In this document: positions 2,286 through 42,009 of the stretch, one piece after another | Layout of the letters: the number at the start of each line of letters is the position of its first letter | Numbering within the stretch: the stretch's first letter is position 1 | IMG/VR virus record: IMGVR_UViG_2541047963_000003 | Direction: 5' to 3' (one strand) | From: a virus | Lineage: Duplodnaviria > Heunggongvirae > Uroviricota > Caudoviricetes | Length of the DNA stretch: 42,009 bases | Notes under the pieces: generated by a model | Seen by the model: the letters and a program-made list of their open reading frames with translations, nothing else | What the model was told of the DNA's origin: nothing | Database searches by the model: none | Made by a program: the position numbers and the translations under genes

Positions 2286-2375
2286 TTAATCCCTGAACTG
2301 TTGGTTAATACGCTTGAGGGCGAATGCGAATAATAAAAAAGGAGCCTGTAGCTCCATGATGATTTTGTTTTTCAT
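2286..2375 (-). CDS. Putative 29-aa small protein (hydrophobic core)
   Basis: Minus-strand ATG at 2375; translation MKNKIIMELQAPFLLFAFALKRINQQFRD; wedged between two ORFs with 2-6 nt spacing; below the 60-aa ORF-track cutoff. Confidence 0.25.
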   Translation of the reverse strand: MKNKIIMELQAPFLLFAFALKRINQQFRD

Positions 2376-2887: not shown

Positions 2888-3016
2888 CTAAGCCAGCCGC
2901 TGGGCTTTCAGTGGATTTTGGATAACAGAAAGGCCGGGAAATACCCAGTCTCGCTTTGTAACGGAGTAGATGAAAGTGATCGCGCCTACCCGGATATTAT
3001 CGTGAGGGTGCGTCAT
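2888..3016 (-). CDS. Lambda orf60a-like protein, 42 aa (shorter than the 60-aa lambda form)
   Basis: Translation [42 protein letters not shown] matches my recollection of the lambda orf60a N-terminus; start overlaps exo stop (ATGA). Confidence 0.4.
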
Positions 3017-3693
3017 CGCCATTGCTCCCCAAATACAAAACCAATTTCAGCCAGTGCCTCGTCCATTTTTTCGATGAACTCCGGCACCATCTCGTCAAAA
3101 CTCGCCATGTACTTTTCATCCCGCTCAACCACGACATAATGCAGTCCTTCACGCTTCATACGCGGGTCATAGTTGGCAAAGTACCAGGCATCTTTTCGCG
3201 TCACCCACATGCTGTACTGCACCTGGGCCATGTAAGCTGACTTTATGGCCTCGAAACTACCGAGCCGGAACTTCATGAAATCCCGGGAGGTAAACGGGCA
3301 TTTCAGTTCAAGGCCGTTGCCGTCACTGCATAAACCATCTGGAGAGCAGGCGGTACGCATACTTTCGTCGCGATAGATGATCGGTGATTCAGTAACATTC
3401 ACGCCGGAAGTGAACTCAAACAGGGCTCTGGCGTCGTTCTCGTACTGTTTTCCCCAGGCCAGCGCTTTAGCGTTAACTTCCGGAGCCACACCGGTGCAAA
3501 CCTCAGCAAGCAGGGTGTGGAAGTAGGACATTTTCATGTCAGGCCACTTTTTTCCGGAGCGGGGTTTTGCTATTACGTTATGAACTTCTGAAGCTGTGAT
3601 GACGCCGAGCCGTAATTTGTGCCACGCATCATCCCCCTGTTCGACAGCTCTCACGTCGATCCCGGTACGCTGCAGGATAATGTCCGGTGTCAT
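3013..3693 (-). CDS. exo: Lambda exonuclease (Red-alpha)
   Basis: 226-aa ORF; full-length, near-identical by recollection to lambda Exo ([50 protein letters not shown]...). Confidence 0.95.
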
Positions 3694-4480: not shown

Positions 4481-4777
4481 TTATACCTCTGAATCAATAT
4501 CAACCTGGTGGTGAGCAATGGTTTCAACCATGTACCGGATGTGTTCTGCCATGCGCTCCTGAAACTCAACATCGTCATCAAACGCACGGGTAATGGCTTT
4601 TTTGCTGGCCCCGTGGCGTTGCAAATGATCGATGCAGAGTGATTCAAACAGGTGCTGGGACAGACCCTTTTCCATGTCGTCTGCCAGTTCTGCCTCTTTC
4701 TCTTCACGGGCGATCTGCTGGTAGTGACGTGCCCAGCTCTGAGCCTCAAGACGATCCTGAATGTAATAAGCGTTCAT
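4481..4777 (-). CDS. gam: Gam (RecBCD inhibitor), 98-aa short form
   Basis: [21 protein letters not shown]... matches lambda GamS; the in-frame upstream region reads ...FRSSA then hits a stop, so the 138-aa long form is not encoded. Confidence 0.9.
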
Positions 4778-4852
4778 GGCTGAACTCCTGAAAATGGCTG
4801 TGAAAATATCGCCCGCGAAATGCCCGGCTGATTAGGAAAACAGGAAAGGGGA

Positions 4853-5143
4853 TTAGTGATTGAGGCCGTTGCCGCGTCCGTCGAGAAAAACTTCCACGAG
4901 CAAATCACGGGTATAAGTGCGCTCGATGCCGCGATGCAGATAAAGCCGTCCGCGTAAATTAGCTGATGCAGTCCAGGTACCATCTTTGTGTTTGACCAGC
5001 ATTCCTGGCATGACCGCACCTCGATTAACGGTCTGCGTTCCGTAATGTTGATGAACCATAAAAACTCCTGCCCGTAAGCTGGGCTGCTGAACATATAGAG
5101 ACTTCTGCGCGTATTCAGGCGGTGGATGGCCGCCGGTTGTCAT
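4853..5143 (-). CDS. Hypothetical protein at the kil position (possibly shorter from an internal Met)
   Basis: 96-aa ORF; stop lies 76 nt upstream of the gam ATG, the spacing I recall for lambda kil relative to GamS; sequence not recognised. Confidence 0.35.
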
Positions 5144-5335
5144 AACTAAGCCGCCTCGTTGAAGCGACTAAGGTATGAAATGTTGAGTTGATTTCAGCTG
5201 GTCACACCGACGTTCACGCGTCCGTTTCACCCCTCGCACTCCCCGAAGCCTGCTGAAATTCAAACTGCGGATCTAAGCGGTCATCGCAACGGTGAATCAG
5301 GTAGTTGCCGTATCGTTGTGTTGTTGCGATGAACT

Positions 5336-5410
5336 TATTTAAAACTATAGTTGTTTTATCGTCAACAACAAAAGTTGTTTTATTGGTTGTTTTAGATATA
5401 ACTGGTTGTA
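5336..5410 (-). promoter_or_regulatory. Putative pL promoter and oL operator cluster
   Basis: On the minus strand, -35 TTGACG (plus 5360-5365), 17-18 nt spacer, -10 TTAAAT/TAAATA; spacer ATAAAACAACTATAGTT nearly identical to the pR spacer; GTTGTT/AACAAC inverted repeats at 5350-5369 and 5364-5379; repeated (A/G)GTTGTT at 5349, 5373, 5385, 5403. Confidence 0.5.
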
Positions 5411-5504
5411 TTTAGGATGGATTTATTTTGTGACTTGAATCGCATAGCGATAACTGAAGCGAGGTTATGGTGGTTTTTTTAACGGTGTGTGTGATGAGGG
5501 GAGG

Positions 5505-5533
5505 GCAAAAGAAAACCCGGCACGGTGACCGGG
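5505..5533 (-). terminator. Candidate intrinsic terminator downstream of the repressor gene
   Basis: Minus-strand hairpin CCCGG-N8-CCGGG (plus 5516-5533) followed by TTTTCTTTT on the minus strand; stem is only 5 bp. Confidence 0.35.
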
Positions 5534-5654
5534 ATTCTTACGCCGTTAGGTAAAGATATTATTGCGGTGGCTTAATATTACTACCTAGAGCAAAGATAGG
5601 AATTAGTTCTTTACTGAATGAGCACAATGCCCAGTTGATAATTTTTAATTGGTA

Positions 5655-6344
5655 CTACCCATGCTTCCTATATGTCTGCGGCATGCTCCCAATAACCTTA
5701 CCGAAGATGAACACCCGGTTCATCTCGTCTTTCTCGATCGGGTCCCACGGTGAGTAGCTTTTGTTATCAGAGATGACCAGCAGCTTATCCTTCATCATTT
5801 GCAGGCGCTTTACATGGGCTGTGTCGTCGTACAGAAACGCATAGATACCATCACCGTCGAAAGATTTAACTGTGATATCAACGAACAGCAGATCACCTGG
5901 TTCGATCGTTCCTGACATGCTGTCACCACGCACGTTAATGATGCGGATATTTTCCGCCTTCCTACCATCGAACATGTGACGAGCATCGTCAAACGAGTAC
6001 TCAACCGAGCGTAGAACTTCTACAAACTCACGGTTGATGACTCCCGGCCCAGCACTGACTTCTATATCAAGAACGTCAATCTTGAAGTATTTGGAATGGC
6101 TGACAGTTGATTGTATTGGTTGCACTGTACTGTCTGACATATTTCCAACGCCAGAAGATAACCATTCTGCGCGCACACCCAAAGCGTTCGCGATCTCCAC
6201 GATTTTAGTTGTTTGATTAGCTTTCCCTGTTTCGATTTTCTGAATAGCAGCCTGGCTAACCCCGACCAAATCCCCAAGCGCCTTTTGTGTAAGGCCTCGC
6301 GCTAATCTGGCTTCTTTAAGTCTTTCTGAGAGTGTTGTTTTCAT
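5655..6344 (-). CDS. cI: Prophage repressor, cI-like (XRE-family HTH plus S24 LexA-like peptidase domain)
   Basis: 229 aa from MKTTLSERLKEARLARGLTQKALGDLVGVSQAAIQKIETG (HTH); C-terminal GDSM...KRL resembles the S24 Ser/Lys dyad region; divergent from cro across an operator region. Confidence 0.85.
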   Translation of the reverse strand: MKTTLSERLKEARLARGLTQKALGDLVGVSQAAIQKIETGKANQTTKIVEIANALGVRAEWLSSGVGNMSDSTVQPIQSTVSHSKYFKIDVLDIEVSAGPGVINREFVEVLRSVEYSFDDARHMFDGRKAENIRIINVRGDSMSGTIEPGDLLFVDITVKSFDGDGIYAFLYDDTAHVKRLQMMKDKLLVISDNKSYSPWDPIEKDEMNRVFIFGKVIGSMPQTYRKHG

Positions 6345-6353
6345 AGTCCAAAT

Positions 6354-6421
6354 GTACAACCAAGGTTTTATTCCATCAAACGAAAATGGTTGTTGACTAA
6401 AAACAACCATAGTTTTAATCT
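6354..6421 (+). promoter_or_regulatory. oR operators and pR promoter
   Basis: Perfect palindrome ATGGTTGTT-GACTAAA-AACAACCAT at 6386-6410 overlapping -35 TTGACT (6393-6398); 17-nt spacer; -10 TAATCT (6416-6421); imperfect site ACAACCAAGGTTTT at 6354-6369 beside the cI start; cro RBS GGAGG at 6439-6443. Confidence 0.6.
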
Positions 6422-6448: not shown

Positions 6449-6679
6449 ATGAACCCAGCTATCAAAACAGCGATCAATATCGTTGGTTCACAAAAGAAAC
6501 TGGGCGCTGCTTGCGAAGTTTCACAGCAGGCCGTCTATAAGTGGCTTCACAACAAAGCAAAGGTATCCCCTGAACATGTCGGCAGCATTGTTACGGCTAC
6601 TGGTGGAGTAGTGAAGGCATACCAGATTCGCCCGGATCTTCCGAAGTTGTTTCCACACACCGAAAAGAACGCAGCTTAA
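6449..6679 (+). CDS. cro: Cro-like repressor (YdaS/Cro-type HTH)
   Basis: 76-aa ORF divergent from the repressor; VGSQKKLGAACEVSQQAVYKW is an HTH like Rac YdaS/Cro-family proteins. Confidence 0.8.
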   Translation: MNPAIKTAINIVGSQKKLGAACEVSQQAVYKWLHNKAKVSPEHVGSIVTATGGVVKAYQIRPDLPKLFPHTEKNAA

Positions 6680-6748
6680 ATTTCCATTTCACGCTCTTTA
6701 ACAATAAGCAATCAACTTAACAGTCAATTCAAACTAAAGGAGTCAATT

Positions 6749-9314: not shown

Positions 9315-9701
9315 TTGAGTTCAAACTGTAGTACAATTCTCTCCAGTTTGAACAGGAAAGAATATGCTATTAACCCTTATATTTATCTTGGTGGTGCAAT
9401 ACTTGCAGAGGTCATTGGTACAACCTTAATGAAGTTTTCAGAAGGTTTTACACGGTTATGGCCATCTGTTGGTACAATTATTTGTTATTGTGCATCATTC
9501 TGGTTATTAGCTCAGACGCTGGCTTATATACCTACAGGGATTGCTTATGCTATCTGGTCAGGAGTCGGTATTGTCCTGATTAGCTTACTATCATGGGGAT
9601 TTTTCGGCCAACGGTTGGACCTGCCAGCCATTATAGGCATGATGTTGATTTGTGCCGGTGTGTTGGTTATTAATTTATTGTCACGAAGCACACCACATTA
9701 A
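9315..9701 (+). CDS. emrE: SMR-family multidrug efflux protein EmrE (start codon uncertain)
   Basis: Residues from NPYIYLGGAILAEVIGTTLMKFSEGFTRLWPSVGTII... to ...LSRSTPH match E. coli EmrE; the position of the canonical Met reads ATT (9369-9371); the track ORF starts at TTG 9315; RBS AGGAAAG at 9354-9360. Confidence 0.8.
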   Translation: MSSNCSTILSSLNRKEYAINPYIYLGGAILAEVIGTTLMKFSEGFTRLWPSVGTIICYCASFWLLAQTLAYIPTGIAYAIWSGVGIVLISLLSWGFFGQRLDLPAIIGMMLICAGVLVINLLSRSTPH

Positions 9702-9956
9702 AAATAATTTATTTTTAAACGACTAAAATATGGAGGTTCGTATATTTGTATGGGCCTCGTTTTATGCTTTTTGTTAATGTCTTTAGTTTTTATTCATTCT
9801 TTTGATCTTTCAAGATTATGGTGTAAGAAAATTGCAATACGATTATTGTTGTATATTCAAGATAATGTGACCTTAATTGTCTTTTTAAATAAAAATTAAA
9901 CAAAAATCATATCTCACCACTAAGGTTTATAAAAGCATACTTTAGCAGGTGTCACC

Positions 9957-11483
9957 ATGAAAAAAGCCATAGCATATATGCGATTTTCATCACCAGGTCA
10001 GATGTCTGGTGATTCATTAAACCGCCAGAGAAGGCTTATTACTGAATGGCTAAAGGTAAATAGTGATTATTACCTTGATACCGTAACGTATGAAGATTTG
10101 GGGTTAAGCGCATTCAATGGAAAGCATGCACAATCAGGAGCTTTTTCGGAATTTTTAGATGCTATAGAACATGGTTACATATTGCCAGGGACTACATTGT
10201 TAGTTGAAAGTCTGGACAGACTTTCAAGAGAAAAAGTCGGTGAAGCGATTGAGCGTCTGAAATTGATTTTGAATCACGGTATTGATGTTATAACTCTTTG
10301 CGATAATACAGTCTATAATATAGACTCATTGAATGAGCCATATTCATTAATAAAAGCCATACTTATAGCACAAAGGGCAAATGAAGAAAGCGAGATAAAG
10401 TCAAGTCGGGTTAAATTATCATGGAAGAAAAAACGGCAGGATGCACTGGAATCAGGCACGATTATGACGGCGTCTTGTCCGAGATGGCTCTCATTGGATG
10501 ACAAAAGAACAGCTTTTATTCCAGACCCCGACAGGGTGAAAACGATTGAGCTAATTTTTAAACTCAGGATGGAAAGGCGATCATTGAATGCAATAGCTAA
10601 GTATTTAAATGATCATGCTGTAAAAAATTTTTCAGGAAAAGAAAGTGCATGGGGGCCTTCTGTAATTGAAAAATTATTAGCGAATAAAGCTCTGATAGGT
10701 ATATGCGTACCTTCATATCGTGCAAGAGGGAAAGGGATAAGTGAAATCGCTGGCTATTATCCCAGAGTCATATCAGATGATTTGTTTTACGCTGTACAGG
10801 AAATTCGGTTGGCACCTTTTGGTATTAGCAATAGTAGCAAGAATCCTATGCTAATAAATCTACTTCGAACAGTTATGAAGTGTGAGGCTTGTGGTAATAC
10901 CATGATTGTTCATGCGGTATCTGGACGTTTGCATGGCTATTATGTTTGTCCGATGAGAAGATTACATCGATGTGACAGGCCATCAATAAAAAGAGATTTG
11001 GTTGATTATAATATCATTAATGAATTGCTTTTTAATTGTAGCAAAATTCAACCAGTTGAAAACAAGAAAGATGCTAATGAAACTTTAGAGTTAAAAATTA
11101 TTGAGCTTCAGATGAAAATTAATAATTTAATCGTTGCATTGTCTGTCGCGCCTGAAGTTACCGCTATAGCAGAGAAAATAAGACTATTAGATAAGGAATT
11201 ACGAAGGGCTTCGGTATCATTAAAAACTTTGAAGAGTAAAGGGGTGAGTTCACTTGGTGATTTTCATGCTATTGATTTAACCAGTAAAAATGGGCGAGAG
11301 CTATGTCGTACACTTGCCTATAAAATATTCGAAAAAATTATAATTAATACAGATAATAAAACCTGTGATATCTATTTTATGAATGGCATTGTTTTTAAAC
11401 ACTATCCTTTAATGAAAGTAATATCCGCCCAGCAGGCGATAAGTACTCTTAAATATATGGTTGATGGTGAGATTTATTTTTGA
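9957..11483 (+). CDS. ybcK: Large serine recombinase (YbcK-like)
   Basis: 508 aa; N-terminal resolvase-type catalytic region (AIAYMRFSSPGQ...LLVESLDRLSR), Cys-rich zinc-ribbon-like segment (CEACGN...CPMRRLHRCD), C-terminal coiled-coil-like region; matches my recollection of DLP12 YbcK; visibly AT-rich gene. Confidence 0.85.
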   Translation: MKKAIAYMRFSSPGQMSGDSLNRQRRLITEWLKVNSDYYLDTVTYEDLGLSAFNGKHAQSGAFSEFLDAIEHGYILPGTTLLVESLDRLSREKVGEAIERLKLILNHGIDVITLCDNTVYNIDSLNEPYSLIKAILIAQRANEESEIKSSRVKLSWKKKRQDALESGTIMTASCPRWLSLDDKRTAFIPDPDRVKTIELIFKLRMERRSLNAIAKYLNDHAVKNFSGKESAWGPSVIEKLLANKALIGICVPSYRARGKGISEIAGYYPRVISDDLFYAVQEIRLAPFGISNSSKNPMLINLLRTVMKCEACGNTMIVHAVSGRLHGYYVCPMRRLHRCDRPSIKRDLVDYNIINELLFNCSKIQPVENKKDANETLELKIIELQMKINNLIVALSVAPEVTAIAEKIRLLDKELRRASVSLKTLKSKGVSSLGDFHAIDLTSKNGRELCRTLAYKIFEKIIINTDNKTCDIYFMNGIVFKHYPLMKVISAQQAISTLKYMVDGEIYF

Positions 11484-11808
11484 GTAATAATCACTTTTTC
11501 AACCGTGCTATGGTATGAAAGTAAAGTAACTAATATGATATTAACTATCTTGAACGAAGCGCCCTGAGCTATAGTTTTACTATAGGCACTGTCACTGGAT
11601 GTTGGCATTCTTGCTCTAGTAGCTCAACAATACCCAATCACAAAACAATTCACTGATAACAAACTTTGTGCACGTGCTTGGTTATGGCGAACAGGTGATG
11701 TTAACCTCTTGCCAGAATGCCACTCCACTTCATTAAGTATCTGAGCACCGAGAGGCTGGTCACGCCCCCATTAAAAATAATTTCTTTTGAATCGAGTGAA
11801 ATAGGTTA

Positions 11809-11834
11809 GCCCGCATAAGTGCGGGCTGCTTTTT
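11809..11834 (+). terminator. Intrinsic terminator hairpin between ybcK region and the convergent esterase gene
   Basis: GCCCGC-ATAAGT-GCGGGC stem-loop followed by TGCTTTTT; overlaps the esterase stop codon. Confidence 0.5.
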
Positions 11835-14591: not shown

Positions 14592-14728
14592 TGTTTGAGT
14601 CTTATATGGCAGAGCGTCTTCGCCGCCGCTGGGTGCGCCTGCGCTTATATCGTTTTCCTGGTTCTGTTTTGACCGATTACCGGATACTGAAGAATTACGC
14701 CAAAACACTGAAAGGAGCTGCCGCATGA
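14588..14728 (+). CDS. ylcG: YlcG-like small protein
   Basis: 46-aa [49 protein letters not shown], overlapping rusA stop and the next start; below the track cutoff. Confidence 0.5.
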
Positions 14729-15414
14729 ATACCCAATATTTACAGTATGTCCGCGAGCAACTCATTGTGGCTACCGCTGATTTGAGCGGAGCAACGAAAG
14801 GACAGCTTGAAGCCTGGCTGGAGCATGCACAATTTGATACTGGTACATACAAACGAAAGAAGCCGCGCATTCTGGATGAGGTAACTGGCAGGATGATTAC
14901 GCTGGATAATCCGCCGATTTCCGGTAAGCAGTCGTACGTAAAAGGTTCATCCATTGCACTGGTCAGCCAGGTTGAGTTCTCAACCTCGTCATGGCGCCGC
15001 GCGGTTCTGTCTCTCGAAGAACATCAGAAAGCGTGGTTGCTGTGGAGTTACAGCGAAAGTGTTCGCTGGGAACATCAGGTCACCATAACGCAGTGGGCAT
15101 GGAGCGAGTTTAAGACTCTGTTGGGTACCAGGAAAATTGCAGGTAAAACACTGGAACGTTTGAAGAAGTTGATCTGGCTGGCGGCACAGGATGTGAAGAA
15201 CGAGCTGGCAGGGCGTAAGACCTATGAATACCAGGAGCTGGCATCACTGGTGGGAGTGACATCAAAAAACTGGTCTGAGACATTTACTGAACGCTGGGTT
15301 GCAATGAAGCACATTTTTCTACAGCTTGATAGCCAGGCTTTATTGCTTTTAACGAAAACACGTTCAAAACAAAAGACCATATTTTCACAGCAAGATATTG
15401 CAAAACTGGATTAA
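14725..15414 (+). CDS. Putative late-gene antiterminator Q (non-lambda type)
   Basis: 229-aa ORF sitting between rusA/ylcG and the lysis cassette, followed by a promoter-like element and terminator hairpins; not similar to lambda Q; call is positional. Confidence 0.55.
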   Translation: MNTQYLQYVREQLIVATADLSGATKGQLEAWLEHAQFDTGTYKRKKPRILDEVTGRMITLDNPPISGKQSYVKGSSIALVSQVEFSTSSWRRAVLSLEEHQKAWLLWSYSESVRWEHQVTITQWAWSEFKTLLGTRKIAGKTLERLKKLIWLAAQDVKNELAGRKTYEYQELASLVGVTSKNWSETFTERWVAMKHIFLQLDSQALLLLTKTRSKQKTIFSQQDIAKLD

Positions 15415-38467: not shown

Positions 38468-41428
38468 GTGAATATGGCAGTAAAGATTTCAGGTGTACTG
38501 AAAGACGGCACAGGAAAACCGGTACAGAACTGCACAATCCAGCTGAAAGCAAAACGTAACAGTACCACGGTGGTGGTGAACACGCTGGCCTCAGAAAATC
38601 CGGATGAAGCCGGGCGTTACAGTATGGACGTTGAGTATGGTCAGTACAGCGTTATTCTGTTGGTGGAGGGATTCCCGCCGTCACATGCCGGGACTATCAC
38701 CGTGTATGAAGATTCTCAACCCGGTACGCTGAATGATTTTCTCGGTGCCATGACGGAGGATGATGCCCGTCCGGAGGCACTGCGCCGTTTTGAAGTGATG
38801 GTGGAAGAGGTGGCGCGTAACGCGTCCGCAGTGGCACAGAACACGGCAGCCGCGAAGAAGTCAGCCGGCGATGCCAGCACATCAGCCCGTGAGGCGGCAA
38901 CCCATGCGACTGATGCTGCAGACTCAGCACGCGCAGCCAGCACGTCAGCCGGACAGGCCGTGTCGTCGGCTCAGTCAGCGTCTTCCAGCGCAGGAACGGC
39001 ATCAGCAAAGGCCACTGAAGCATCAAAAAGTGCTGCCGCTGCAGAGTCCTCAAAAAGCGCGGCGGCCACCAGTGCCGGTGCGGCAAAAACGTCAGAAACG
39101 AATGCTGCAGCGTCACAACAATCAGCAGCCACTTCTGCATCCACCGCGACCACGAAAGCGTCAGAAGCTGCCACCTCAGCCCGGGATGCGGCGGCCTCAA
39201 AAGAGGCAGCGAAATCATCAGAAACGAACGCATCCTCGAGCGCCAGTAGTTCCGCTTCCTCGGCAACGGCGGCAGGAAATTCCGCGAAGGCGGCAAAAAC
39301 GTCCGAGACGAACGCCAGGTCTTCTGAGACGGCAGCGGGACAGAGCGCCTCAGATGCGGCAGGCTCAAAAACAGCGGCTGCATCATCTGCCAGTGCCGCG
39401 TCAACAAGTGCCGGGCAGGCCTCAGCCAGTGCCACTGCCGCCGGAAAATCGGCAGAAAGCGCTGCATTGTCCGCTTCAACAGCCACAACGAAGGCTGGCG
39501 AAGCCGCTGAACAGGCCAGCGCAGCAGCGAGGTCTGCATCCGCAGCGAAGACATCCGAAACGAACGCGAAAGCCTCGGAAACCAGTGCAGAATCCTCAAA
39601 AATGGCAGCTGCATCGTCCGCCAGTTCGGCGGCGTCATCGGCATCATCTGCGTCTGCTTCAAAAGATGAGGCGAGCAGACAGGCATCAGCAGCGAAAGGC
39701 AGCGCCACGACGGCATCCACGAAGGCGACAGAGGCAACTGGTAGTGCGACGGCGGCAGCTCAGAGCAAAAGTACGGCGGAATCCGCGGCAACGCGCGCCG
39801 AGACAGCAGCAAAACGGGCAGAGGATATTGCATCCGCCGTGGCGCTTGAGGATGCGAGCACGACGAAAAAGGGGATAGTACAGCTCAGCAGTGCGACCAA
39901 CAGCACGTCTGAAACGCTGGCGGCAACGCCAAAGGCAGTAAAAGCAGCCAATGACAATGCTGAGAAACGTCTGCAGAAAGATCAGAACGGTGCGGATATC
40001 CCTGGCAAAGACACCTTTACGAAAAATATTGGTGCCTGCCGTGCCTTCGGTGGGTCAGTAAGCACAACAACAGGAAACTGGACGACTGCACAGTTTATCG
40101 AGTGGCTGGATTCTCAGGGAGCATTTAACCATCCATACTGGATGTGCAAGGGTTCCTGGTCTTATGGCAATAATAAAATCATTACTGATACTGGCTGCGG
40201 TAATATTCATCTCGCCGGAGCTGTCATTGAAGTAATGGGGATAAAGTCAGCGATGACGATCCGCATTACCACTCCGACCACATCCAGCGGTGGCGGAACA
40301 ACCAACGCCCAGTTTACCTATATTAATCACGGAACAGATTATTCACCTGGTTGGCGAAGGGACTATAACTCCAGAAATAAGCCAACGGCATCAGAGATCG
40401 GGGCGCTACCGTCAGGTGGAACAGCAGTATCATCAGTTAATCTGGCTTCAAAAGGTCGGGTAGCCGCGCTGACAGACAATACGCAGGGGGCAGCAGGTCT
40501 TGAGTTATACGAGGTGTATAACAACGGATATCCAACAGCGTATGGAAATATCATTCACCTGAAAGGGATGACAGCCGTTGGCGAAGGTGAGTTACTCATC
40601 GGCTGGAGTGGTACAAGCGGTGCTCATGCTCCGGCATTTATTCGTTCACGACGGGATACGACCGACGCAAACTGGTCGCCGTGGGCGCAGCTTTACACCT
40701 CGGCTCATCCTCCTGCAGAGTTTTATCCAGTCGGCGCACCAATCCCGTGGCCATCAGATACCGTTCCGTCTGGCTATGCCCTGATGCAGGGGCAGACTTT
40801 TGACAAATCTGCATACCCGAAACTTGCAGTTGCTTATCCGTCAGGCGTGATCCCTGATATGCGTGGCTGGACGATTAAGGGCAAACCCGCCAGTGGCCGG
40901 GCCGTATTGTCTCAGGAACAGGACGGCATTAAATCGCACACCCACAGCGCCAGCGCATCCAGTACGGATTTGGGGACGAAAACCACATCGTCGTTTGATT
41001 ACGGCACTAAATCCACGAATAACACCGGGTCGCATACGCACAGTCTGAGTGGCTCTACGGGGTCTGCCGGTGCTCATACTCATGGTAATGGTATTCGTTG
41101 GCCAGGAGGCGGCGGTTCTGCGTTAGCATTTTATGATGGCGGTGGGTTCACTTATGTCAAGGATTCACAGTATCAAGTAAGCCCGGGGACTTCTTCCAGT
41201 AGATCGTATTATCAACGTATTCAGACACAGTCAGCAGGTGCTCATACCCACTCGCTGTCTGGTACTGCAGCAAATGCTGGCGCACATGCACATACTGTAG
41301 GTATTGGTGCGCATACGCACTCGGTTGCGATTGGGTCACATGGACACACCATCACCGTTAACGCTGCTGGTAACGCGGAAAACACCGTCAAAAACATCGC
41401 ATTTAACTATATTGTGAGGCTCGCATAA
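38468..41428 (+). CDS. stf: Side tail fibre protein Stf (intact, mosaic)
   Basis: 986-aa ORF; N-terminus [26 protein letters not shown]... and C-terminus ...[31 protein letters not shown] match recalled Ur-lambda Stf; long Ala/Ser/Thr-rich repeat region; HxH-rich C-terminal region. Confidence 0.85.
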
Positions 41429-42009
41429 TGGCATTCAGAATGAGTGAACAAGCACGGACCATAAAAATTTATAACCTGCTGGCCGGAACTAATGAATTTA
41501 TTGGTGAAGGTGACGCATATATTCCTCCTCATACAGGTCTGCCTGCAAACAGTACCGATATTGCACCGCCAGATATTCCGGCTGGCTTTGTGGCTGTTTT
41601 CAACAGTGATGAGGCATCGTGGCATCTCGTTGAAGACCATCGGGGAAAAACGGTCTATGACGTGGCTTCCGGCGACGCGTTATTTATTTCTGAACTCGGC
41701 TCATTACCGGAAAATGTCACCTGGTTATCCCCGGAAGGGGAGTTTCAGAAGTGGAACGGTACAGCCTGGGTGAAGGATACGGAAGCAGAAAAACTGTTCC
41801 GGATCCGGGAGGCGGAAGAAACAAAAAACAGCCTGATGCAGGTAGCCAGTGAGCATATAGCGCCGCTTCAGGATGCTGCAGATCTGAAAATTGCAACGGA
41901 GGAAGAAACCTTGTTGCTGGAAGCCTGGAAAAAGTATCGGGTGTTGCTGAACCGTGTTGATACATCAGTAGTACCGGATATTGAGTGGCCAGTAGCACCT
42001 ATAGGGTAA
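41428..42009 (+). CDS. tfa: Tail fibre assembly protein Tfa
   Basis: 193-aa ORF matching lambda Tfa; start overlaps the stf stop; stop at 42007-42009. Confidence 0.9.

Follow-up and report, generated by a model that had tools for sequence, protein, structure and literature searches.

Lambdoid phages have more than one means of carrying transcription from the early-left promoter, pL, past terminators: lambda uses N together with nutL, and HK022 uses putL. The HK022 putL and putR elements are cis-acting, protein-independent antiterminator RNAs of ~70 nt that consist of two adjacent stem-loops, and one copy is located downstream of each early promoter (pL and pR). Antitermination by put is blocked by mutations in the zinc-binding domain of the beta' subunit of RNA polymerase. 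To our knowledge, put, which occurs in HK022-like phages, is the sole RNA family that renders E. coli RNA polymerase resistant to termination without a protein.

Some phages have neither N nor put, yet possess a conserved terminator between pL and xis/int, and about two fifths of complete E. coli genomes harbor such phages. Here, we describe the pL leader of one of them. It is contained in a 42,009-nt stretch of viral DNA (IMG/VR record IMGVR_UViG_2541047963_000003, the whole of which is referred to as the window) that represents a lambda-like lambdoid prophage of E. coli with a Q gene and no N gene. Of 5426 complete E. coli genomes, 2210 contain the leader element, and it was likewise detected in numerous prophage contigs of IMG/VR; none of these genomes has it annotated, and no publication describing it was found in the literature searched. 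If its central module, designated M2, carries RNA polymerase through terminators, it would represent a second solution to protein-free antitermination, provide a new handle on the control of elongation by nascent RNA, and explain the early program of a very common prophage group. Should it prove not to be an antiterminator, it would remain a leader RNA that is widespread and unannotated and that annotators mis-translate as an N-terminal extension of Kil.

The early-left leader and its setting

Left of the leader, on the minus strand, are kil, gam (4481-4777), bet, exo (3013-3693), a TraR-like gene, xis and int (1-1143), and the pL operon is organized as kil-gam-bet-exo ... xis-int. The first early-left gene, kil, codes for an FtsZ inhibitor and matches phrog_294 (E 3e-38); PHROG matches were also obtained for this early-left gene set. 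To the right follow, in this order, cI (5655 to ~6344, minus strand), cro (6449-6679), a CII-like gene, O, P, a moron block, Q (14725-15414) and a holin gene. The absence of an N gene, as claimed in the original prediction, was confirmed: none lies between cI and kil, where the transcribed strand contains no ORF of at least 40 aa, and PHROG scans of the early ORFs detected Q and no member of an N-type antiterminator family.

Several other features of the window were observed in passing. A QacE/EmrE-like transporter gene and a gene for a 508-aa serine recombinase are located between ren and the nin-like genes (9315-11483, plus strand), a layout that we take to resemble that of DLP12 of K-12. 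Terminator-like hairpins follow these two genes (9733-9758 and 11807-11828, plus strand), obstacles that rightward transcription would need to cross on its way to Q. Near the right end of the window, 41771-41969 (plus strand) gives a full-length match to the Rfam family IS009 (RF02111; 218 bits). One more terminator-like hairpin (5705-5725, plus strand) is found inside the 3' end of cI, and svsR, a co293-like prophage sRNA, was reported at the corresponding position in another lambdoid prophage (PMC12803456).

The pL promoter was read from the sequence at 5337-5365 (minus strand), with a -35 hexamer, TTGACG (5365-5360), a 17-nt spacer and a -10 hexamer, TTAAAT (5342-5337). It is embedded in oL operators of the form GTTGTT-N8-AACAAC (5350-5369), which recurs at oR (6389-6407). 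In an alignment of eight related phages comprising two immunity types, TTGATA and TATTAT of the second type line up with the -35 and -10 hexamers of the window. The two types diverge only between ~5415 and 5331, and identity returns at a purine, 5330, which is A or G in the relatives. Resumption of identity at this position fixes the predicted start within 1-2 nt. The leftward pL with a start near 5330, as first proposed, is thus borne out by hexamers that match column by column across two immunity types and by conservation that resumes at the start itself.

Upstream of oL, the cI transcript ends at an intrinsic terminator (CCCGGTCACCGTGCCGGG followed by a T-run; 5507-5533, minus strand) that is conserved across immunity types. 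So is a block of ~115 nt between this terminator and oL (window 5420-5533), which includes the palindrome ATCGCTATGCGAT (5451-5439); our guess would be an IHF site or an UP-element-like sequence serving pL. On the other side of the terminator, at the position of rexAB in lambda, only ~120 nt (5534-5654) separate it from cI in the window. In relatives, this interval holds cassettes of two or three genes (GevAT and others; loci L002 3441-4869, L003 3439-4989 and L010 3949-5471), and it looks like a defence-moron hotspot.

The early-left operon transcribed from pL has its untranslated leader at 5069-5330 (minus strand). The kil gene (4853-5078, minus strand, with AGGAG at 5078-5074 and the stop codon at 4853) most likely begins at ATG 5068 and not at ATG 5143. 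Its ribosome-binding site and ATG 5068 are invariant in the aligned relatives; ATG 5143 is in frame with kil in the window, and relatives have 1-nt indels between the two ATGs. A leader of ~190 nt that ends at a first ORF with ATG 5143 had been predicted. That ATG exists, but the first gene starts at 5068, and the leader, counted from the start at ~5330 to the kil ATG, is therefore ~262 nt. The broader view of a transcribed, non-coding pL leader in an N-less lambdoid phage is upheld by sequence comparison and by the ORF and PHROG scans.

The central module M2 and the inverted repeat

As judged by sequence comparison, the leader is a mosaic of three modules on the minus strand, M1 (5298-5330), M2 (5297-5196) and M3 (~5195-5100), of which M2 is a portable central module specific to this phage group. 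Divergent relatives of M2 were identified by a genome-wide scan for an M3 motif and a second scan of IMG/VR. These Enterobacter-type (E-type) copies, with ~80% identity, occur in Enterobacter, Trabulsiella and uncultured IMG/VR prophages, in which M2 is fused to a phi80-type transcript start. The genes that follow E-type M2 code for an HNH endonuclease, a TerB-like protein and unknown proteins, none of them N-like, and in several relatives M3 does not directly follow M2. Since M2 is found ahead of unrelated genes, its function goes with pL and not with kil. A metagenome scan with a degenerate M2 pattern was set aside: its 25 loci consisted of 20 chance matches in GC-rich genomes and 5 ordinary E. 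coli-type copies.

The core of M2 is an 84-nt non-coding RNA composed of two directly adjacent irregular hairpins, D1 and D2, with G-poor tracts on both sides. Its structure is the RNAalifold consensus of a gap-free, 103-column alignment of the E. coli (W-type) variants and E-type copies. D1 (5235-5279, minus strand) contains helix A (CGC/GCG), helix B (CCG/CGG) and helix C (5266-5261/5252-5247), capped by the loop AAUUUCAG (5260-5253). D2 (5196-5234, minus strand) has a GGU/ACC base, an internal loop and an inner stem, ACGGACG/CGUCGGU, whose loop, CGUGAA, differs among relatives. In this alignment, 99.4% of the cells in D1 and D2 are paired. In helix C of D1, pair 5266-5247 changes from A-U to C-G and pair 5265-5248 from G-C to A-U between W-type and E-type; in D2, pair 5225-5206 occurs as A-U, G-U and G-C, and pair 5221-5210 changes from A-U to G-C. 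Paired changes on both sides thus number four in D1/D2 versus 0-1 in slid controls, and the covariation score was matched by 0 of 500 shuffles, with the compensatory changes derived from three or four lineages and the structure from the alignment that was tested.

Variation within E. coli is compatible with this structure, although insufficient to separate models: in 72 distinct variants, each candidate helix is ~99% paired. Two common polymorphisms at paired sites retain pairing, the common C/U polymorphism at 5264 is opposite a G, and a recurrent change, G5230A, breaks one D2 pair in 6 of the 72 variants. When the 84-nt RNA is folded in isolation, D1+D2 is both the minimum-energy and the centroid fold. 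Its folding energies are no better than those of shuffles, and D2 of the E. coli variant faces competition from a long-range alternative fold. The leader at large, originally described as structured, is likewise unexceptional in energy (z -1.67 over 211 nt, +0.51 over the initial 140 nt and -1.16 for the hairpin formed by the inverted repeat discussed below), and the shorter GC-rich inverted repeats that had been noted further downstream do exist. A long-range stem, AUUUCAGC/GCUGAAAU, around the GC-rich part was rejected, as it lacks compensation and competes with the covarying helix C.

Sequence conservation within E. coli tells less. Diversity of D1/D2 is 0.033-0.042, versus 0.043-0.056 at third codon positions of kil and gam, i.e., barely lower, and the idea that the leader is exceptionally conserved in E. 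coli was dropped. The near-identity of the leader among E. coli prophages mostly reflects recent common ancestry. The case for function therefore rests on modular retention, lost coding frames and covariation.

With regard to coding frames, a mini-ORF for an arginine-rich peptide, MKRTRERRCDQLKSTQHFIP, extends on the minus strand from GTG 5230 to TAG 5168 (window 5168-5230). It has GGAG 7 nt upstream of the GTG, which is ATG in 6 variants, and its KRTRERR motif recalls the arginine-rich motif of lambda N. In two thirds of the E. coli variants, the TAG is replaced by CAG, which fuses the frame to kil; hence the database Kil entries of 128-139 aa (extended annotations, e.g., L002 2754-3140 and L003 2754-3173). 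That the leader codes for this peptide or for an N-terminal extension of Kil is, however, already largely refuted, and we see almost no chance for it. E-type copies have stops in all three frames, 5-nt and 1-nt indels are present inside the frame in W-type variants, one variant has GGG in place of the start codon, the substitutions are not codon-like, and no PHROG family is matched. A Kil protein of 128-139 aa that reads through the non-coding leader is probably an annotation artefact.

The feature first noticed in this leader was a perfect 9-bp inverted repeat with a 32-nt loop, with arms on the plus strand of CATCGCAAC (5282-5290) and GTTGCGATG (5323-5331). It is present and in fact extends to 10 bp (5281-5290/5323-5332, with 32 nt between the arms); perfect repeats of 10 bp or more whose loop does not exceed 60 nt are found in 0.66% of shuffled 200-nt leaders, and the whole window has six of them. 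In the minus-strand orientation, the 5' arm, UCAUCGCAAC (5323-5332), falls in the immunity-linked part of the leader and includes the inferred start at ~5330; an RNA that starts at 5330 carries only 8 of the 10 pairs. The 3' arm, GUUGCGAUGA (5281-5290), has an alternative partner, CGCAGY (5269-5264), and diversity is low over 5297-5280 (pi 0.017). The repeat had been regarded as the key structure, but it is not the conserved core: it is broken without compensation in several variants, shows zero compensatory changes, was not found in the divergent E-type relatives, which retain the downstream module, and is excluded from the minimum-energy fold of the RNA starting at 5330. In our model, it would be an accessory 5'-terminal stem of the E. 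coli variant. Folding and covariance analysis, which had been suggested as a check, therefore favored D1/D2 and left the repeat without compensation. The expectation of a cis-acting or regulatory RNA in the leader holds insofar as a covariation-backed element is present there, but its core is M2 rather than the repeat.

At the DNA level, the repeat could instead be a protein-binding palindrome near pL, or the leader might have no function and be a hitch-hiking scar of a lost N-nutL segment. The position of the repeat arms, which flank the transcription start, would suit the former; the near-neutral diversity of D1/D2 within E. coli and the fact that the leader joins M3 exactly at the position of the phi80 N terminator would suit the latter. 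However, the common polymorphisms (A/G opposite U and C/U opposite G) are G-U-compatible, and since such changes keep an RNA helix and not a DNA palindrome, a DNA site, as also considered in the original prediction, is disfavored. The compensatory pairs in D1/D2 and the retention of M2 as a module in differing genomic contexts further argue against this explanation, and we consider it decidedly unlikely.

Flanking modules and candidate functions

M1, where transcription begins, is rich in CA and poor in G. Its sequence is similar to that at the beginning of the phi80 pL transcript, AUCGAAACGAAACAUCGA, and is partly immunity-linked, a third immunity type diverging up to 5297. Positions 5328-5312 (minus strand; CGCAACAACACAACGAU) are complementary to the R1 seed of the host sRNA GcvB, with 15 contiguous pairs. 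The beginning of the pL RNA, as such or processed to a fragment, could thus pair with GcvB in trans, as sponge or target, and link induction to the control of amino-acid and peptide transport. GcvB was the one sRNA, out of ~100, that was considered, after the fact; its predicted duplex with the first 40 nt has an energy of -35.9 kcal/mol, which 0.2% of shuffles attain (shuffle mean -23.7, sd 3.5). All 5426 genomes carry the GcvB sequence that was used. There is also a precedent in AgvB of EHEC prophages, a stand-alone sRNA of 51-60 nt with its own terminator, located 3' of pR', that uses CACAACA as a mimic (PMC4104026). Like the leader, AgvB comes from a prophage and has, in its 5' region, CA-rich sequence that complements the GcvB R1 seed. 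Unlike AgvB, the leader tract is the start of an mRNA (+3 to +19) that is repressed in lysogens and is not followed by a terminator, and both AgvB and svsR were rejected as a match for the leader, as these prophage sRNAs are located elsewhere. Moreover, the tract is changed in several variants and missing in one immunity type, and the CA-rich start is shared with phi80, where the match is weaker. A trans-acting role via GcvB is therefore, in our opinion, a long shot.

In the RNA, C greatly exceeds G on both flanks of M2 (5330-5290 and 5199-5160). The composition profile of the second flank includes a G-less tract of 26 nt, AAAUCAACUCAACAUUUCAUACCUUA, with rut-like composition (5169-5194, minus strand). 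This tract contains AAUCAACUCAACA, which recurs as AAUCAACUUAACA after the boxA of the pR operon (6710-6722); read from the pR side, AATCAACTTAACA at 6710-6722 reappears as AATCAACTCAACA at 5193-5181 of the pL leader. Rho and NusG are known to silence prophage kil genes, such as rac kilR. The leader might accordingly be a Rho-dependent attenuator that stops stray or leaky transcription before kil and keeps the prophage silent, with the hairpins only spacing or presenting the rut tracts. The ~262 untranslated nt and the skewed flanks are what such an attenuator would have, but it would leave the covariation of the hairpin stems and the passage of induced pL transcription unexplained, and no part of the leader is less conserved than the G-poor tracts (pi 0.073 for the 26-nt tract, the most variable part besides M1). 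We consider this explanation unlikely.

M3 is common to phi80, HK225 and Enterobacter phages. Other genes precede it in phi80 and HK225; in phi80, an intrinsic terminator and the gene that the phi80 record labels N lie upstream of it. M3 includes a hairpin, SL3 (AGUCGCUUC-AAC-GAGGCGGCU; 5149-5169, minus strand), which hides a GAGG located 10 nt upstream of AUG 5143 and is the sole part of the leader clearly more stable than shuffles (z-score -2.78). In phi80, SL3 has the sequence AGUCAUU-UACG-AGUGGCU, with one G-C to A-U exchange, and its W-type polymorphisms are wobble-compatible. The rest of M3 (5100-5148, minus strand; pi 0.017) contains the conserved AUG (5143-5141) and a hairpin formed by GGCGG (5134-5130) and CCGCC (5122-5118).

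These features suggest that the leader might act post-transcriptionally, by setting the stability or translation of early-left mRNA: a 5' stem would shield the transcript from RNase E, and SL3 would gate a short upstream frame and thereby the toxic kil. 5'-terminal stem-loops of the ompA type stabilize E. coli mRNAs, and the stem of the inverted repeat begins at the predicted +1; the stability of SL3 and its joint occurrence with the conserved AUG in phi80, HK225 and Enterobacter phages would fit a gate. However, M2 precedes unrelated genes, sometimes without M3 directly after it, so that the core is not specific to kil. Outside the E. coli variant, the 5' stem is not retained, and some members have it broken, and 1-nt indels after AUG 5143 alter the frame relative to kil. 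Post-transcriptional control appears to us a lesser possibility, rather improbable as the main role of the leader.

A different line of evidence comes from the downstream part of the operon. A strong terminator-like hairpin, GGAGCTACAGGCTCC (2355-2341), followed by T6 (2335-2355, minus strand), interrupts the pL operon before the TraR-like gene, xis and int are reached. More than 100 related loci, among them some of the phi80 type and one of the put type, share this motif on the same strand at a distance of ~2.9 kb from pL. A conserved intrinsic terminator ~3 kb downstream in the operon implies that some read-through device is needed. We propose, as the simplest interpretation, that M2 may be this device, as a cis-acting, protein-independent RNA that controls elongation or termination of pL transcription, and assign this model a probability of roughly 40%. 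It is suggested by the conserved terminator, the lack of N and put, the long leader flanked by G-poor tracts, and the association of the module with pL. M2 would fold on the nascent pL transcript and act in cis on the elongating RNA polymerase or on its termination factors. Rho would then fail to stop pL transcription in the long untranslated leader, and polymerase would continue past the intrinsic terminator. M2 would thus replace the function of N/nutL in lambda or of putL in HK022, without a phage protein. Several negative results speak against this model: the put covariance model reveals no likeness, Rfam offers no matching family, the leader lacks a boxA, and, in contrast to put and nut, BLAST and the M2 covariance model show no second copy for the pR operon.

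Relationship to known leader and antitermination elements

Searches with known elements were carried out over the leader and the window. No relevant match was obtained in an Rfam scan of the window at gathering thresholds or in a permissive scan of 4800-5700; on the RNA strand of the leader, no family scored at E below 1, and the permissive matches near the leader were at chance level only and were on the opposite strand or outside the element. A search for boxA (CGCUCUUUA-like; GCTCTTTAACA with up to 2 mismatches) gave no match in 5069-5335, and the sole perfect boxA in the GCTCTTTAACA search was at 6693-6703 in the pR operon. There, a perfect rrn-type boxA, CGCTCTTTAACAA (6692-6704, plus strand), is located between cro and the CII-like gene in this immunity type only, and no boxB-like hairpin follows it. 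In the other immunity type, no boxA is present after cro, and a hairpin, GCCGC-CTAATCT-GCGGC, is found instead.

A short-word BLAST search of the leader against the window yielded noise, save a 13-mer after boxA. Neither this search nor the M2 covariance model detected a second, putR-like copy of M2 in the window, the pR operon being empty, and a 22-bit match of the model inside a tail-fibre ORF (39149-39231) was judged to be due to chance. The same model detected one copy per phage and gave no match in 100 other lambdoid loci, including phi80-type leaders.

Some similarity is seen to 5' stem-loops of the ompA type, in that the inverted repeat would give the transcript a stem from its very first nucleotide on. 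Unlike those structures, this stem is not conserved across the family and encloses a 32-nt loop.

The phi80-type pL leader is similar over the first ~25 nt after pL, and M3 is common to both leaders. It differs in that it carries boxA, has a structured domain of its own (~190 nt) and leads into other genes. Homology of M2 to it was suggestive by eye but unsupported by nhmmer and the M2 covariance model, neither of which gave significant similarity. The phi80-type leader is a separate and very widespread conserved element (phi80 itself, locus L006, X13065, ~1140-870, minus strand; 120 IMG/VR loci, L153-L272), in which boxA is followed by the ~190-nt domain closed by CAGCGUCAA/UUGGCGCUG. One of its stems shows a C-G to U-A exchange (CACCG...CGGUG versus CAUCG...CGAUG), it occurs with many immunity types and many downstream genes, and an Rfam scan of the phi80 leader gave no family match. 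We also noticed a conserved junction in phi80-like phages, the hairpin CCCGC-AUCA-GCGGG followed by UAACGACAGAGGGUAAGGGGAUG, before several different early-left ORFs (L006 ~775-725, minus strand; L132, L299, L307 and L323), which looks like a portable expression signal or a recombination joint.

With respect to lambda nutL and N, the leader occupies the same place on the map, between pL and the recombination and kil genes. In lambda tR1, rutA and rutB flank boxB, and G-poor tracts flank the hairpins of the leader in a similar manner. Unlike the lambda system, however, there is no N gene and no boxA in the leader, and the loops of its hairpins are not boxB-like and vary among relatives.

For comparison with put, HK022 putL and putR were read from the genome, and a covariance model was built from 13 put sequences. 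It scored HK022 putR at 96.4 bits and putL at 76.4 bits and gave no match in the leader, the E-type loci or phi80. Identity with HK022 put was therefore rejected, as both comparison by eye and the covariance model showed no relation, and the parallel with putL that had been suggested for checking does not extend to sequence. Three differences stand out: M2 starts at ~+52 and put at +3; each phage has M2 only once, the pR operon lacking a copy; and M2, the activity of which is putative, has no similarity to put in sequence or structure. The likeness is in architecture only, with D1+D2 spanning 84 nt without a spacer and put ~70 nt. We offer, as a doubtful but attractive possibility, that D1-D2 evolved independently as another class of processive antiterminator RNA that needs no protein. 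It would then be equivalent to put in function and be carried by the pL operons of N-less lambdoid prophages in ~40% of sequenced E. coli genomes. Like put, it is a leader element located just downstream of pL in an N-less lambdoid phage, non-coding and independent of the gene that follows.
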